Source: an uncultured Pseudomonas sp.
Lineage (GTDB): Bacteria > Pseudomonadota > Gammaproteobacteria > Pseudomonadales > Pseudomonadaceae
DNA length: 64,000 bases
Assembly (NCBI GenBank): GCA_966210885.1
Contig: CBIHLQ010000004.1
Coordinates: 13,620-77,619, forward strand
Direction of reading: 5' to 3'
Positions 11,698-16,755 of this stretch are shown here, piece after piece (position 1 is the stretch's first letter; the number at the start of each line of letters is the position of its first letter). Below the pieces are notes generated by a model. That model was not told where the DNA came from and searched no databases. It was given only the letters and a program-made list of their open reading frames with translations. Made by a program: the position numbers and the translations under genes.

Positions 11698-11786
11698 GTC
11701 GACGGTCCCGCTGTCATGAGGCTTTAGGGCCCTTTAGACCGGTGACTTTGCGTCTCCGCCTTTCGACGGGTTTGCCTTTATCGCAC
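11698..11786 (-). ncRNA. c-di-GMP-I (GEMM-I) riboswitch aptamer upstream of the pilin operon
   Basis: Minus strand reads GUGCGAUAAAGGCAAACCCGUCGAAAGGCGGAGACGCAAAGUCACCGGUCUAAAGGGCCCUAAAGCCUCAUGACAGCGGGACCGUCGAC. It has GGCAAAC, a P2 stem with GAAA tetraloop, GACGCAAAG, a UCUAA..AUGA tetraloop receptor and P1 GU(g)CGAU/GUCGAC. Confidence 0.9.
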
Positions 11787-12462: not shown

Positions 12463-12679
12463 GATTCGAACTCCAATCGATGTGCGCACCCGGTAGAGAA
12501 AAACGCAGGTAAAAGTGCGCATCCCGGGATCGGCGGTTATGCCTTTCAGCGTCGCCCGAACGGCTGCCGTAGATCGACTGGAACGCCCGTGCTTGAGCCG
12601 CTTCACCGCTTCCGTGAACTATCTCGAATGTCGGTGCTCACATGGGTTATGTGCACTCAGCAATGGTCTACGCCGCCCT

Positions 12680-13105
12680 ATGGACAGCCAAGAGAGCAGC
12701 CGGATAGCCGCTCCGCTGGCGCGCTGTCTCGGAGAGCATGCGGATGCCATGCAGATCGCCGATGCGATTGTTGTCGTGTGGAGTGAAATTGATAGCGCCC
12801 TGGCGCCGATTATCGGGCACGGGGGGGTGATTGCGCTGTGCAAGCGCAGCCTTTATCTCGCCGCCCAGCGACACGCCTGCCTGACTGACGCTTATGCAAG
12901 CATCCAGTCAGGGGGCGAGTTCACCGATTTTAAGCCAGTTATCGCGCAACAGACCGGCATCACTGTCTCCGTCGGCGATGAGGTTTTCCAACAGTTCAAT
13001 GGGTTGCTTGTGTCGTTGATCGGCAGCTCTCTCACCGAGCGATTGCTGCGCTCCGTGTGGGAAAACTCGTTGGCCGCGCCGCCCGCGCAGGAGCATTTGC
13101 CATGA
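12680..13105 (+). CDS. Small alpha-helical protein coupled to the KaiC-like ATPase, 141 aa
   Basis: MDSQESSRIAAPL start; stop overlaps the ATPase start (ATGA at 13102-13105). Confidence 0.7.
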   Translation: MDSQESSRIAAPLARCLGEHADAMQIADAIVVVWSEIDSALAPIIGHGGVIALCKRSLYLAAQRHACLTDAYASIQSGGEFTDFKPVIAQQTGITVSVGDEVFQQFNGLLVSLIGSSLTERLLRSVWENSLAAPPAQEHLP

Positions 13106-14562
13106 AAAAAGTAGCCATCAACTGTTTGTCTACTGGCATTGCGGGCCTGGATCGAGTCCTGGCCGGTGGGTTGCCGGAGCTTTCCTTCAATGTGATCGCC
13201 GGCGCCCCCGGCTGCGGTAAGACCACGCTGTCGCATCAACTCATGTTCGAAATGGTCAAGCACAATGCCCCAGCGCTGTATTTCACGGGATTGGGCGAGC
13301 CTCCGTTGAAAATGCTGCGTCACCAGCAGCAGTTCGATTTCTTCGACGACGAGAAGATCGGCCAGTCGATCCACTTTATCAACCTGACGGAGGATATCTT
13401 CGGCGGCGACCTCAAGTTGATGCTGCAGCGGATCGTCGACGAGGTACTAAGCCATCAACCCAAGCTGGTATTCGTCGACTCCTTCCGCGCTGCGGTGCAC
13501 TCCAACGAGGTGGAGCAACAGCCGAACAGCGATCTGCAGCAATTTATGCAGCAGCTCGGGCTATTGTTGACCAGTTGGCAGATCACCTCGTTCCTGATCG
13601 GCGAATACTTTTCCGAGGTCGGCAACAACCCAGTGTTCACGGTGGCCGATGGCTTGATCTGGCTACATAAGGACGTGCATCGCAACTCCTTGGTGCGCAA
13701 GTTGGAAGTCATGAAAATGCGCGGTCAGCCAGTCCTGCCGGGGCTACATACCTACCGACTCAGCTTGCATAAAGGCATCGAAGTATTCGCACCCTCCGAT
13801 AGCCTGGCGCTGCCTGAGTGCATCCGTCCCTCGGAGACTTCCCGCCTGGGGATGGGGGTGGAGCATCTGGACGAGATGCTCGGGGGCGGTTTGCCGAGTG
13901 GTTATGCGCTGTTGGTGGTAGGCCCTTCGGGGTCTGGCAAGTCGACTCTGGCCATGGCGTTCTTGGCCGAAGGCGTACGCAACGGCGAGACCGCGGTGAT
14001 TGCCAATTTCGATAAAAATCCCTATCTGTCGTGCAACCCAGCACTCGTCAATTTGTTGAACAGTGGACAGATCGGCGTGCTGTACAGCCTCGCCCCCGAT
14101 CTGTCGATCGATGAGATTGCGCTCAAGTTGGTCGACGAAATCCGCCGACTCAAGGCGACCCGCGTGGTGATCGATTCGCTATCGGGCCTCGAACTCTCCC
14201 TGGCCCCGACCTCCCGCGCGGACTTCCGCGAATCGCTGGCTCGCCTGACCAGGACCCTGTCCAACACCGGTGTCAGCGTGCTGTTGATCTCCGAACTCGA
14301 GGATAGCTATACCGAGTTGCGCTTAAGCCCTCACGACACCGCGTTCCTCGCCGACGCAATCATCATGCAGCGCTATATCGAAGTCGACAGCAGGCTGCTG
14401 CGGGTGATGGCGGTGGTCAAGGTTCGGGGCAGCAAGCACTCCAATCAACTGCGTCAATTCACTATCGACGACGAGGGTATTCACCTGGGCGAACCCTTGA
14501 TAAATCAGGAAGGGTTGCTGGGTGGCCAGCCAACGGCAAATACCGGTAACGATTCGGCCTGA
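13102..14562 (+). CDS. KaiC-like double-domain RecA-superfamily ATPase, 486 aa
   Basis: Two Walker A motifs (GAPGCGKT, GPSGSGKS), Walker B motifs (VFVDS, VVIDS), KMRG and KVRG arginine fingers; GGAG RBS. Confidence 0.92.
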   Translation: MKKVAINCLSTGIAGLDRVLAGGLPELSFNVIAGAPGCGKTTLSHQLMFEMVKHNAPALYFTGLGEPPLKMLRHQQQFDFFDDEKIGQSIHFINLTEDIFGGDLKLMLQRIVDEVLSHQPKLVFVDSFRAAVHSNEVEQQPNSDLQQFMQQLGLLLTSWQITSFLIGEYFSEVGNNPVFTVADGLIWLHKDVHRNSLVRKLEVMKMRGQPVLPGLHTYRLSLHKGIEVFAPSDSLALPECIRPSETSRLGMGVEHLDEMLGGGLPSGYALLVVGPSGSGKSTLAMAFLAEGVRNGETAVIANFDKNPYLSCNPALVNLLNSGQIGVLYSLAPDLSIDEIALKLVDEIRRLKATRVVIDSLSGLELSLAPTSRADFRESLARLTRTLSNTGVSVLLISELEDSYTELRLSPHDTAFLADAIIMQRYIEVDSRLLRVMAVVKVRGSKHSNQLRQFTIDDEGIHLGEPLINQEGLLGGQPTANTGNDSA

Positions 14563-14591: not shown

Positions 14592-16181
14592 TTGAACAAA
14601 AAACGGGGCCGCGGCCCGGATACGGCCAAAGCTCGACCTGAATCGACGCCCGATCAACCGATCGAGTCGGTGTCGCAAAAGAAGTTGGACGAACTGAAGA
14701 AGCGTCTGGACGATAGCCATCCGTCGCCACTGGTGGAAGCCAACGAGCAGTTGGTGTTCGCCATGTTGCGCACCCAGATCAAGGCCGAGCAAGCCGAGCG
14801 CAAACTCCAGGAGGCTTTGCGCCTGGTCGAGCTGGACGCATTGACGGGCCTGCCGAACCGCGTGCTGTTTTTCGACCGTTTCACCCGTGCGATCGCCAAT
14901 GCCAAGCGGCATAACCAGCGTTTGGCGCTGTTGTTCCTCGACCTCAACAACTTCAAGCAAATCAACGACACCCTCGGCCATAGCGTGGGCGACGAGGTGC
15001 TCAAGCATGCGGCAAGGTGCTTCGTCTCCTCGGTGCGCGAGGCCGATACCGTCAGTCGTCTGGGCGGCGATGAGTTTTTGATCCTGCTCACGGAAGTTAC
15101 CCAGCCCGCCGATGCGACCTTGATCGCCAGAAAAGTCACGGCGGCGCTCGGCACGCCGAACCGTATCGGCGAGCACCTGTTGCGCCTGACCACCAGCATC
15201 GGCATCAGCATCTATCCCGACGATGGCGATACGCCCGACGAACTCGTCGAGCGCGCCGATGCCGCCATGTACCGGGCCAAGCGGCACGGGCTGGGCGGCT
15301 TCGTGTTTCACGGCGAGGCCAACGACAGCGAGCCGCTCGACCCGCCCGTCAGCTCGCTCAAGCGTCTGGTTACCCACTATGAGTTGTTACAGGCCGAGCA
15401 TGATCGGCACAGCTGCGACTTGTTGGAAGCCAACGAACAGTTGGTCCTGGCCGCCCTGACCGCACAGGCCCTGCAAGCCGAGGCGGAACAGGCGGAGCGC
15501 CGGCAAAAGGACGCCCTGACTCTGCTCACGCATGAAGTGCGCACGGCCTTGACGCCGATCCGCATGGTCGCGGAATTGTTAAGTCGCCCTAGCCAGCACG
15601 TGCCACTGCGCTTGCAACAGGTTTTCGAACGCAAGGTAAGCCATCTGTACCGCGTGCTGGACGACCTGCTGCATATCTCGCGCGCTAGCGTCGCCAAGTT
15701 GAAGCTCGAGCGGCAAACGGTCGATTTGAACCATATCGTCGAATCGGTGGTGCAAACCTGGCGGCCGGAGATGGACAGTCGAACACAGCGTTTTGAACTG
15801 CGGATGCCGCAACAGGCACTGTTGTTGGAAGGCGACCCGATGAGGCTGGAACAGATTTTCGACAACCTGCTCGGCAACGCCTGCCAATACACCCCGGCGG
15901 GCGGACAGATCGCGCTGACCGCGAAGTGCGAAGGCGATACCGTCGTCATCACGATCAACGACAGTGGCGTCGGCATCGATACCGAACTGTTGCCGAACAT
16001 CTTCGAGCCGTTCGTGCAGACGCCCGGCGCCATCGACTTCGACAGCGGCGGTTTGGGCATCGGGCTCACGGTGGTGCGCGAACTGGTCCTGGCCCACGGC
16101 GGCGAGGTCGCCGCCAGCAGTGCTGGCCCCGGTCTCGGTAGCCAGTTCGTGGTCAAACTGCCTCTGCTCGGGCAATCTTAA
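14592..16181 (+). CDS. GGDEF diguanylate cyclase - HisKA - HATPase_c fusion protein, 529 aa
   Basis: DALTGLPNR, DLNNFKQINDTLGHSVGD, READ I-site plus RLGGDEF; THEVRT H-box, NLLGNA N-box, DSGVGI, IFEPF, GLGIGL. Start codon (TTG) uncertain. Confidence 0.88.
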   Translation: MNKKRGRGPDTAKARPESTPDQPIESVSQKKLDELKKRLDDSHPSPLVEANEQLVFAMLRTQIKAEQAERKLQEALRLVELDALTGLPNRVLFFDRFTRAIANAKRHNQRLALLFLDLNNFKQINDTLGHSVGDEVLKHAARCFVSSVREADTVSRLGGDEFLILLTEVTQPADATLIARKVTAALGTPNRIGEHLLRLTTSIGISIYPDDGDTPDELVERADAAMYRAKRHGLGGFVFHGEANDSEPLDPPVSSLKRLVTHYELLQAEHDRHSCDLLEANEQLVLAALTAQALQAEAEQAERRQKDALTLLTHEVRTALTPIRMVAELLSRPSQHVPLRLQQVFERKVSHLYRVLDDLLHISRASVAKLKLERQTVDLNHIVESVVQTWRPEMDSRTQRFELRMPQQALLLEGDPMRLEQIFDNLLGNACQYTPAGGQIALTAKCEGDTVVITINDSGVGIDTELLPNIFEPFVQTPGAIDFDSGGLGIGLTVVRELVLAHGGEVAASSAGPGLGSQFVVKLPLLGQS

Positions 16182-16233: not shown

Positions 16234-16755
16234 ATGCCAGCCCTACTCCGCGCGCTTGAAGGCGACATTACCCGGCTGCGGGTGCACGCTATCGTCAACG
16301 CGGCGAACAGCTCGCTGCTCGGCGGCGGTGGGGTCGATGGCGCGATCCACCGCGCCGCCGGCCCGCAATTGCTCGAAGAATGCCGGCGCCTTGGCGGTTG
16401 CAAAACCGGCGAGGCCAAGCTGACCCGCGGCTATCGGCTGCCTGCCGACTACGTCATCCATACGGTCGGGCCGGTTTGGCGGGGCGGCGATCACGGCGAA
16501 GCCTCCTTGCTGGCGTCCTGTTACCGGCGCTCGCTGGAGCTTGCCGCCGAGCACGGCATCCGCAGTCTGGCCTTCCCCTGTATAGCTACAGGTGTTTATG
16601 GCTACCCCAACGAACTGGCGGCGCAGGTCGCGGTAACCACGGTACAAGCCGCGCTGCAACAGCTTGTCAGCCTCGAGGAGCTGATCTTCTGCTGTTTTTC
16701 GGCCCATGATCTGCGGCTCTATCAGAGGCTTCTCCGAGAGATGCCGAGCCATTAA
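16234..16755 (+). CDS. ymdB: Macro domain O-acetyl-ADP-ribose deacetylase (YmdB-like)
   Basis: [51 protein letters not shown]. Confidence 0.93.

Follow-up and report, generated by a model that had tools for sequence, protein, structure and literature searches.

Many non-photosynthetic bacteria carry relatives of the cyanobacterial clock ATPase KaiC, which raises the question of how such proteins function where KaiA and KaiB are missing. In the genus Pseudomonas, which is without KaiB, the KaiC homologues have been split into three groups (Terrettaz, Cabete, Geiser, Valentini and Gonzalez, bioRxiv 10.1101/2022.01.26.477890; Environ Microbiol 2023). In groups I and III, according to the preprint, the Pseudomonas proteins bind the histidine kinases encoded beside them. 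Group II is only listed in it, without experimental study, and is described by four features: no phosphorylatable residues at the S431/T432 positions, two threonines close to them, Xanthomonadales as the source of the nearest relatives, and no neighbour other than a histidine kinase (Terrettaz et al., bioRxiv 10.1101/2022.01.26.477890). Among KaiC homologues in general, a 'black group' with degenerate phosphosites includes an 'AF' type, and the genes nearby encode hypothetical proteins, histidine kinases and GGDEF/EAL proteins in a context that has been called heterogeneous (De Luca et al., 2011, PMC3164672). The present study concerns a gene for a KaiC-like ATPase in a 64,000-nucleotide stretch of DNA from an uncultured Pseudomonas sp. 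(GenBank assembly GCA_966210885.1, contig CBIHLQ010000004.1, positions 13,620 to 77,619), hereafter the window, to whose numbering the coordinates below refer. This gene is preceded by one for a small helical protein and followed by one for a fused diguanylate cyclase and histidine kinase. We read the three genes, with a probability of roughly 0.55, as a cassette for an ATPase switch that is independent of the clock phosphosites and controls a cyclase/kinase lacking a sensor domain of its own.

A conserved three-gene cassette

The small partner gene (12680..13105, + strand) has 141 codons and a start that is backed by the N-termini of its homologues. It is followed by the KaiC-like ATPase gene (13102..14562, + strand), which encodes 486 amino acids and matches the Pseudomonas 'group II' type, and then by a gene for a sensor-less fusion of GGDEF, HisKA and HATPase_c domains (14592..16181, + strand; 529 amino acids), the likely output. 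The stop codon of the small gene, TGA at 13103-13105, overlaps the KaiC-like start codon, ATG at 13102-13104, in an ATGA arrangement, and a Shine-Dalgarno sequence AGGAG for the KaiC-like gene (13089..13093, + strand) is located within the last codons of the small gene, 8 nucleotides before the ATG. Of 75 related loci, 61 retain the overlap, and most of the others have gaps of 1-3 nucleotides instead. A CAGGA motif is found at the same distance before the KaiC start in most related loci, where it also encodes the conserved A-Q-D tail of the small protein. The original prediction, made from the sequence of the window, had proposed a helical protein of 141 amino acids translationally coupled to the ATPase gene from upstream, and both the overlap and an all-helical structural model, described below, bear this out.

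A locus scan of one genome per species, using a profile made from 15 sequences, returned 80 loci. These are distributed among Gammaproteobacteria (Pseudomonas, Rhodanobacter, Dyella, Lysobacter, Luteimonas and Marinobacterium) and Betaproteobacteria (Rhizobacter, Rubrivivax, Rhodoferax, Caballeronia, Methylibium and others). The order of small gene, KaiC-like gene, and GGDEF and/or histidine kinase gene is seen in almost every locus with enough sequence, and the KaiC-like genes of the cassette loci are 59-65% identical to the present copy. When 301 species genomes of Pseudomonas were surveyed, the small protein was found in 55 and the KaiC type, defined by 58-66% identity at E≤1e-60, in 54 of those same genomes at adjacent coordinates, so that the co-occurrence expected of a true partner is present; about one in six species of the genus carries the cassette. 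As judged from these genomes, the small protein is a genuine and obligately co-occurring partner of the KaiC-like gene. Clustering of open reading frames revealed no other conserved neighbour around the cassette loci; the clustering, which gave antisense artefacts in GC-rich DNA, served no purpose beyond this. Three genomes of the same genus (G067, G128 and G201) contain 3-4 copies of the small gene and up to 3 adjacent KaiC-like genes at separate chromosomal sites. The multiple copies, together with the variable flanks, suggest that the cassette moves or duplicates.

The downstream gene was overlooked in the original prediction. Its product of 529 amino acids matches the Pfam domains GGDEF (E 1e-49), HATPase_c (5e-26) and HisKA (2e-6), and the translation shows a GGDEF motif, an RxxD I-site and the His of the H-box. 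Among 63 loci in which the position can be judged, an output gene directly follows the KaiC-like gene in 60, encoding both GGDEF and histidine kinase domains in 48, GGDEF only in 10 and histidine kinase only in two; of the remaining three loci, one has another gene there and two are without KaiC. Each catalytic domain of the output proteins has a conserved helix with an ANEQLV-like motif in front of it, and two such helices are adjacent in the forms that have only a histidine kinase. The catalytic domains are modular and exchangeable between loci (e.g., L008, L012, L020, L031, L035, L036 and L063), and no sensor domain was found in the output proteins of the cassette loci. The GGDEF-HisKA-HATPase gene thus belongs to the conserved cassette and is its likely output.

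The KaiC-like ATPase

The KaiC-like protein consists of two tandem KaiC/RecA-like domains, CI and CII. It matches Pfam KaiC (PF06745) twice (E 3.1e-63) and the KaiC chains of the PDB with E 7.7e-48, and the top Foldseek matches of its AlphaFold2 (AF2) model (predicted local distance difference test, pLDDT, 77) are all KaiC (E 5e-38, template-modelling score, TM, 0.65-0.69). On the other hand, it fails both cut-offs of the NCBIfam circadian KaiC equivalogs (NF006799 / TIGR02655), scoring 204.1 bits vs a cut-off of 408 in one case and 127.7 vs 546.25 in the other. Residues were mapped by phmmer and by hmmsearch with a profile of 36 family members, both against PDB KaiC chains, and the results of the two agree; counts of family residues below refer to 68 members. 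The machinery for nucleotide binding is well preserved. The Walker A motif of CI, GAPGCGKT (residues 34-41; 13201..13224, + strand), has G, K and T invariant in the 68 members, and that of CII, GPSGSGKS (residues 274-281; 13921..13944, + strand), is invariant in the family. The Walker B aspartates, D126 and D358, and the K-x-R arginine fingers, K205/R207 and K440/R442, are likewise invariant. The C-terminal loop has a conserved EGLLGG sequence.

The site that corresponds to the clock phosphosites has a different character. In the pseudo-phosphosite segment S409-P-H-D-T413-A414-F415-L-A417 (14326..14352, + strand), as placed by phmmer and profile alignment, A414-F415 (nucleotides 14341-14346) fall on KaiC S431-T432, and Ala-Phe is found there in 68 of the 68 members, so the clock phosphoacceptors Ser431 and Thr432 are missing. 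All 29 of the other copies sampled from the genus read SPYGTAF(L/M)TDA in this segment. Hydroxyl residues do occur close by: S409, on KaiC T426, is invariant in the family, T413, on KaiC I430, is present in 60 of the 68 members, and position 417, on KaiC T434, is Thr in the family and Ala in this strain.

The Glu-Glu pair of KaiC is absent from both domains, being G-E in CI, and D-K in CII of this strain where the family has E-Q. The CI position, G65-E66 (13294..13299, + strand), is aligned to KaiC E77-E78 with both G and E invariant in the family, whose CI loop reads (V)LGEPP; the register here is uncertain by one, since in the AF2 model the loop GLGEP, which follows the strand at 58-62, exceeds the CII loop FDKN by one residue. 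Read from this alignment, CI is a domain without the canonical first Glu, invariantly across the family. The CII position, D304-K305 (GAT AAA; 14011..14016, + strand), is aligned to KaiC E318-E319; the pair is E-Q in 64 of the 68 members, with Glu at the first position in 67. The family keeps one invariant carboxylate per domain. These results sustain most of what the original prediction had said of the protein, namely that Ala-Phe takes the place of S431/T432, that the CI pair reads GE, and that both domains keep their Walker A motifs and arginine fingers; proper alignment restores neither Ser/Thr at the phosphosites nor the Glu-Glu pairs. The further statement that the pair is absent from CII stands in so far as neither residue is Glu, and falls short in that the site is not empty, an Asp being present.

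It has also been considered whether the protein is still a phospho-timer, which would autophosphorylate on S409 and/or T413 and carry the signal in a slow phosphorylation cycle. The invariance of S409, the presence of T413 in 60 of the 68 members and the family Thr at the T434 position would suit such a cycle, as would the Glu that the family keeps at the E318 position of the kinase base. KaiC T426 can be phosphorylated in phosphosite mutants. Alternative acceptors have moreover been raised for group II (Terrettaz et al., bioRxiv 10.1101/2022.01.26.477890). In this strain, however, one of the two Thr residues close by is gone (A417) and Asp stands where the base Glu would be, and throughout the family the T432 position is always filled by a bulky Phe, which makes a phosphorylation cycle at these residues doubtful.

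Neither KaiB (PF07689) nor KaiA (PF07688) is matched anywhere in the 5.66-Mb, 99.98%-complete genome, whereas the Synechococcus control is positive for both; the earlier remark that no kaiA or kaiB lies nearby accordingly extends to the whole genome. Since the clock-site phosphoacceptors and KaiA/KaiB are absent and the scores are far below the equivalog cut-offs, the assignment of the protein as a non-circadian KaiC relative, already suggested from the window, is supported at the level of sequence. A stretch of CI (window 13378-13400; residues ~93-100) is about 6 residues shorter than in cyanobacterial KaiC by phmmer. We take this stretch to correspond to the segment of cyanobacterial KaiC that forms the KaiB-binding B-loop, and a short B-loop region fits the absence of KaiB.

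The small helical partner

The small protein has no match in Pfam or NCBIfam, and its 118 homologues from a word-indexed search are all unnamed or 'hypothetical'. A search with its profile gave 3530 cluster representatives at E≤1e-3, of which 460 reach E≤1e-30, and essentially all of the representatives listed are stand-alone proteins of ~140 amino acids. An AF2 model from 93 sequences (pLDDT 82; predicted TM score, pTM, 0.77) is all-helical with seven helices, among them a helix of 40 residues at residues 23-62. The best-conserved motifs are R-S-L-Y-L (56-60) and S-L-T-E-R-L-L-R-S-V-W (117-127). Foldseek of the model against the PDB gave no fold match (best E 0.74, TM<0.35), and the profile matched only noise among PDB sequences, and a KaiA-, KaiB- or SasA-like fold was rejected on these results. 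At the sensitivity of the tools used, the small protein is without similarity to KaiA, KaiB or the N-domain of SasA. An identity as an FCD domain was rejected as well: five weak Pfam hits among 31 family members (best E 0.001) are taken as compositional because the family has neither a conserved His/Asp metal site nor structural support for that fold. Longer homologues might seem to contain a fused N-terminal domain, but their extensions are unconserved and have no Pfam match, and are ascribed to mis-called starts. In the literature, neither the small partner nor the GGDEF fusion was found to be described.

The small protein may alternatively be a bridge or scaffold that docks coiled-coil output enzymes on the KaiC-like ring, or a factor for assembly of the ring, rather than a regulator of the ATPase. 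Its stoichiometric coupling to KaiC would be expected of such a part; the helix of 40 residues is of a kind that could pack against coiled coils, and in two loci the small gene lies beside a GGDEF gene with no KaiC. On the other hand, the small protein accompanies KaiC with every type of output, be it GGDEF plus histidine kinase, GGDEF only or histidine kinase only, and both of the KaiC-less loci come from metagenome bins. A purely structural role is on this evidence unlikely.

The CII catalytic pair in this strain

The original prediction had suggested that CII may bind nucleotide without hydrolysing it. This does not hold for the family: 67 of the 68 members have Glu at the E318 position, as have 28 of 29 further copies sampled from the genus and the three closest relatives. 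In those 28 genus copies the pair reads FE(Q/P)(R/H)P; in the remaining one (L113) it is unreadable. The closest relatives, metagenome contigs that share the genes downstream (dsbB, glycosyltransferase and dctP), read NFEQNP, NFEHNP and SFEQNP, that is, EQ or EH. By comparison of these copies, D304-K305 is private to this strain. Binding without hydrolysis would then not be a family trait and at most fits this strain. In a profile comparison, D304 is aligned with the catalytic Glu of the RecA encoded by the same genome. The E96D mutant of RecA is a slow-hydrolysis mutant, and the same change from Glu to Asp occurs naturally at D304; RecA is a different protein, so that an effect on hydrolysis by the KaiC-like protein is proposed by analogy only. 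By this analogy, the private change probably slows hydrolysis in CII of this strain.

Other departures from the family are shared with relatives. H411, D412 and A417 are common to this strain and its nearest relative, and A417 is present in the subclade of L122 and L124. Deviations at nearly invariant family positions number 8 in this copy and 8 in L124, and four or fewer in all other members. The ratios of non-synonymous to synonymous substitution rates (dN/dS) against the closest relative are 0.27 for the small gene, 0.33 for the KaiC-like gene and 0.15 for the cyclase-kinase gene, while those of KaiC in other family pairs of similar divergence are 0.07-0.20. These values indicate that this lineage is evolving faster and is still under purifying selection in all three genes. 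That the copy is losing function under relaxed selection, with no designed role for D304, K305, G63 or A417, is very unlikely: the eight deviations, the raised dN/dS of KaiC and the private D304-K305 pair could be so explained, but all three open reading frames are intact, the ATGA overlap and the Shine-Dalgarno sequence are kept, dN/dS is well below 1, and half of the deviations are common to L124, which means that they are maintained in the lineage.

Possible mechanism of signalling

In the model that we infer for the contacts between the components, the course of the signal and their activity as enzymes, the three genes would form one putative operon and encode a self-contained signalling device. 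The KaiC-like protein would be a two-ring ATPase of the RecA type that works without the Ser/Thr phosphorylation cycle of the clock. Its ring would bind ATP and probably hydrolyse it slowly, and the nucleotide or ATPase state of the ring would be the signal. The small protein, presumably made in fixed proportion to the ATPase via the ATGA coupling, would fill the regulatory place of KaiA/KaiB, either by providing an input or by modulating the ATPase. The state of the pair of KaiC-like and small proteins may then be read by the N-terminal coiled coil of the GGDEF-histidine kinase protein, and this readout would set the synthesis of cyclic di-GMP (c-di-GMP) and a His-Asp phosphorelay.

The reading of the cassette as a phosphosite-independent ATPase switch is preferred because the gene set is conserved in its synteny, the first two genes are coupled by ATGA with an internal Shine-Dalgarno sequence and co-occur, the KaiC-like protein has the folds and residue states of an ATPase, with invariant Walker and arginine-finger residues and one carboxylate per domain, the output proteins are without a sensor domain, KaiC homologues from the other two groups in Pseudomonas bind neighbouring kinases, and all three genes are under purifying selection. 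Several observations weigh against it. No cognate response regulator is conserved near the cassette loci, and no ligand-binding or catalytic motif can be recognised in the small protein. In two loci, L050 (6001-6703) and L074 (434-1653), the small gene is followed by a GGDEF gene with no KaiC-like gene; these are the metagenome bins mentioned above (Methylibium and Rhizobacter, respectively), and either deletion or an assembly artefact would account for them. Going further, it is possible, and we put it forward tentatively, that the small protein represents a new class of KaiC regulator, related to neither KaiA nor KaiB in sequence or fold, and sets the ATPase or nucleotide-exchange state of a ring that has abandoned phosphorylation, so that the device would be a phosphorylation-free timer or energy gauge driving c-di-GMP synthesis and a phosphorelay, and that this pairing, with its 3530 cluster representatives, is ancient and widespread.

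For an uncharacterised group of KaiC relatives, the cassette offers a testable partner protein and an easily measured output, c-di-GMP and histidine kinase activity. Its frequency in a well-studied genus makes genetics in laboratory strains practical, and the natural variant from Glu to Asp is a ready probe of CII catalysis.

Leader and flanking genes

The small gene is preceded by a conserved non-coding leader (12578..12679, + strand) with 81-88% nucleotide identity to the closest relatives; further upstream, indels in these relatives break the reading frame. Starts of the small open reading frame at GTG 12515 or ATG 12539 are ruled out by these indels. No evident Shine-Dalgarno sequence is found before ATG 12680. 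Inside the leader is a palindrome, CACAT-N5-ATGTG (12639-12653, + strand), whose half-sites are kept in the relative L122 with a different loop or spacer. It could be an operator or a leader hairpin.

Between the GGDEF-histidine kinase gene and dsbB, there is a Macro-domain gene (16234-16755, + strand; PF01661, E 1e-49), which is missing from the corresponding place in the closest relatives, L120-L124. On the other side, a c-di-GMP-I riboswitch (RF01051, 73 bits, E 2e-13; 11698-11786, - strand) leads a divergent operon for pilin, chaperone and usher, ~900 nucleotides from the cassette with its diguanylate cyclase gene. A conserved circuit of the cassette with this riboswitch and pilus operon was considered and rejected, as the closest relatives instead carry genes for resistance-nodulation-division (RND) efflux or a 7TMR-DISM GGDEF protein upstream.

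Comparison with known systems

Cyanobacterial KaiC with SasA shares the double-domain fold, the two P-loops and the two arginine fingers, as well as a histidine kinase that is likely to read the ATPase. The identity to cyanobacterial KaiC is 22-28%, and the present protein differs from it in its Ala-Phe phosphosites, in having one carboxylate per Glu-Glu pair and in being without KaiA/KaiB. SasA has a KaiB-like N-domain, whereas the output enzyme here has a coiled-coil N-terminus and adds a diguanylate cyclase. Archaeal KaiC-like ATPases have reportedly been proposed as signalling hubs by Makarova, Galperin and Koonin in 2017. They likewise have small proteins and signalling enzymes beside the ATPase and no clock function; they belong to other lineages and have other partners. 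The 'black group' of KaiC homologues defines no conserved cassette, partner family or coupling (De Luca et al., 2011, PMC3164672), unlike the present analysis.

This strain has a second KaiC paralogue (G000 contig 14, L089 6310-9647, - strand), a double-domain protein of 480 amino acids with Ser-Gly at the S431/T432 positions. It sits between a PAS histidine kinase (468 amino acids) and a single-domain receiver (121 amino acids), which is the layout of group III; this 'SG' protein is group III-like, not group I, in the scheme of Terrettaz et al. A literature search on KaiC with genera of Xanthomonadales found nothing relevant.

The closest counterpart is group II, to which the KaiC-like type described here corresponds by its sequence and neighbourhood, the family fitting all four of the published descriptors. 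The family reads G-T-A-F-L-T-D, with two Thr residues nearby, of which this strain keeps T413 and has A417 in place of the other. Family loci outside Pseudomonas occur in Rhodanobacter, Dyella, Lysobacter and Luteimonas, and also in Burkholderiales. The GGDEF domain, c-di-GMP and the small upstream partner, none of which is mentioned in the preprint on group II, are all present here.

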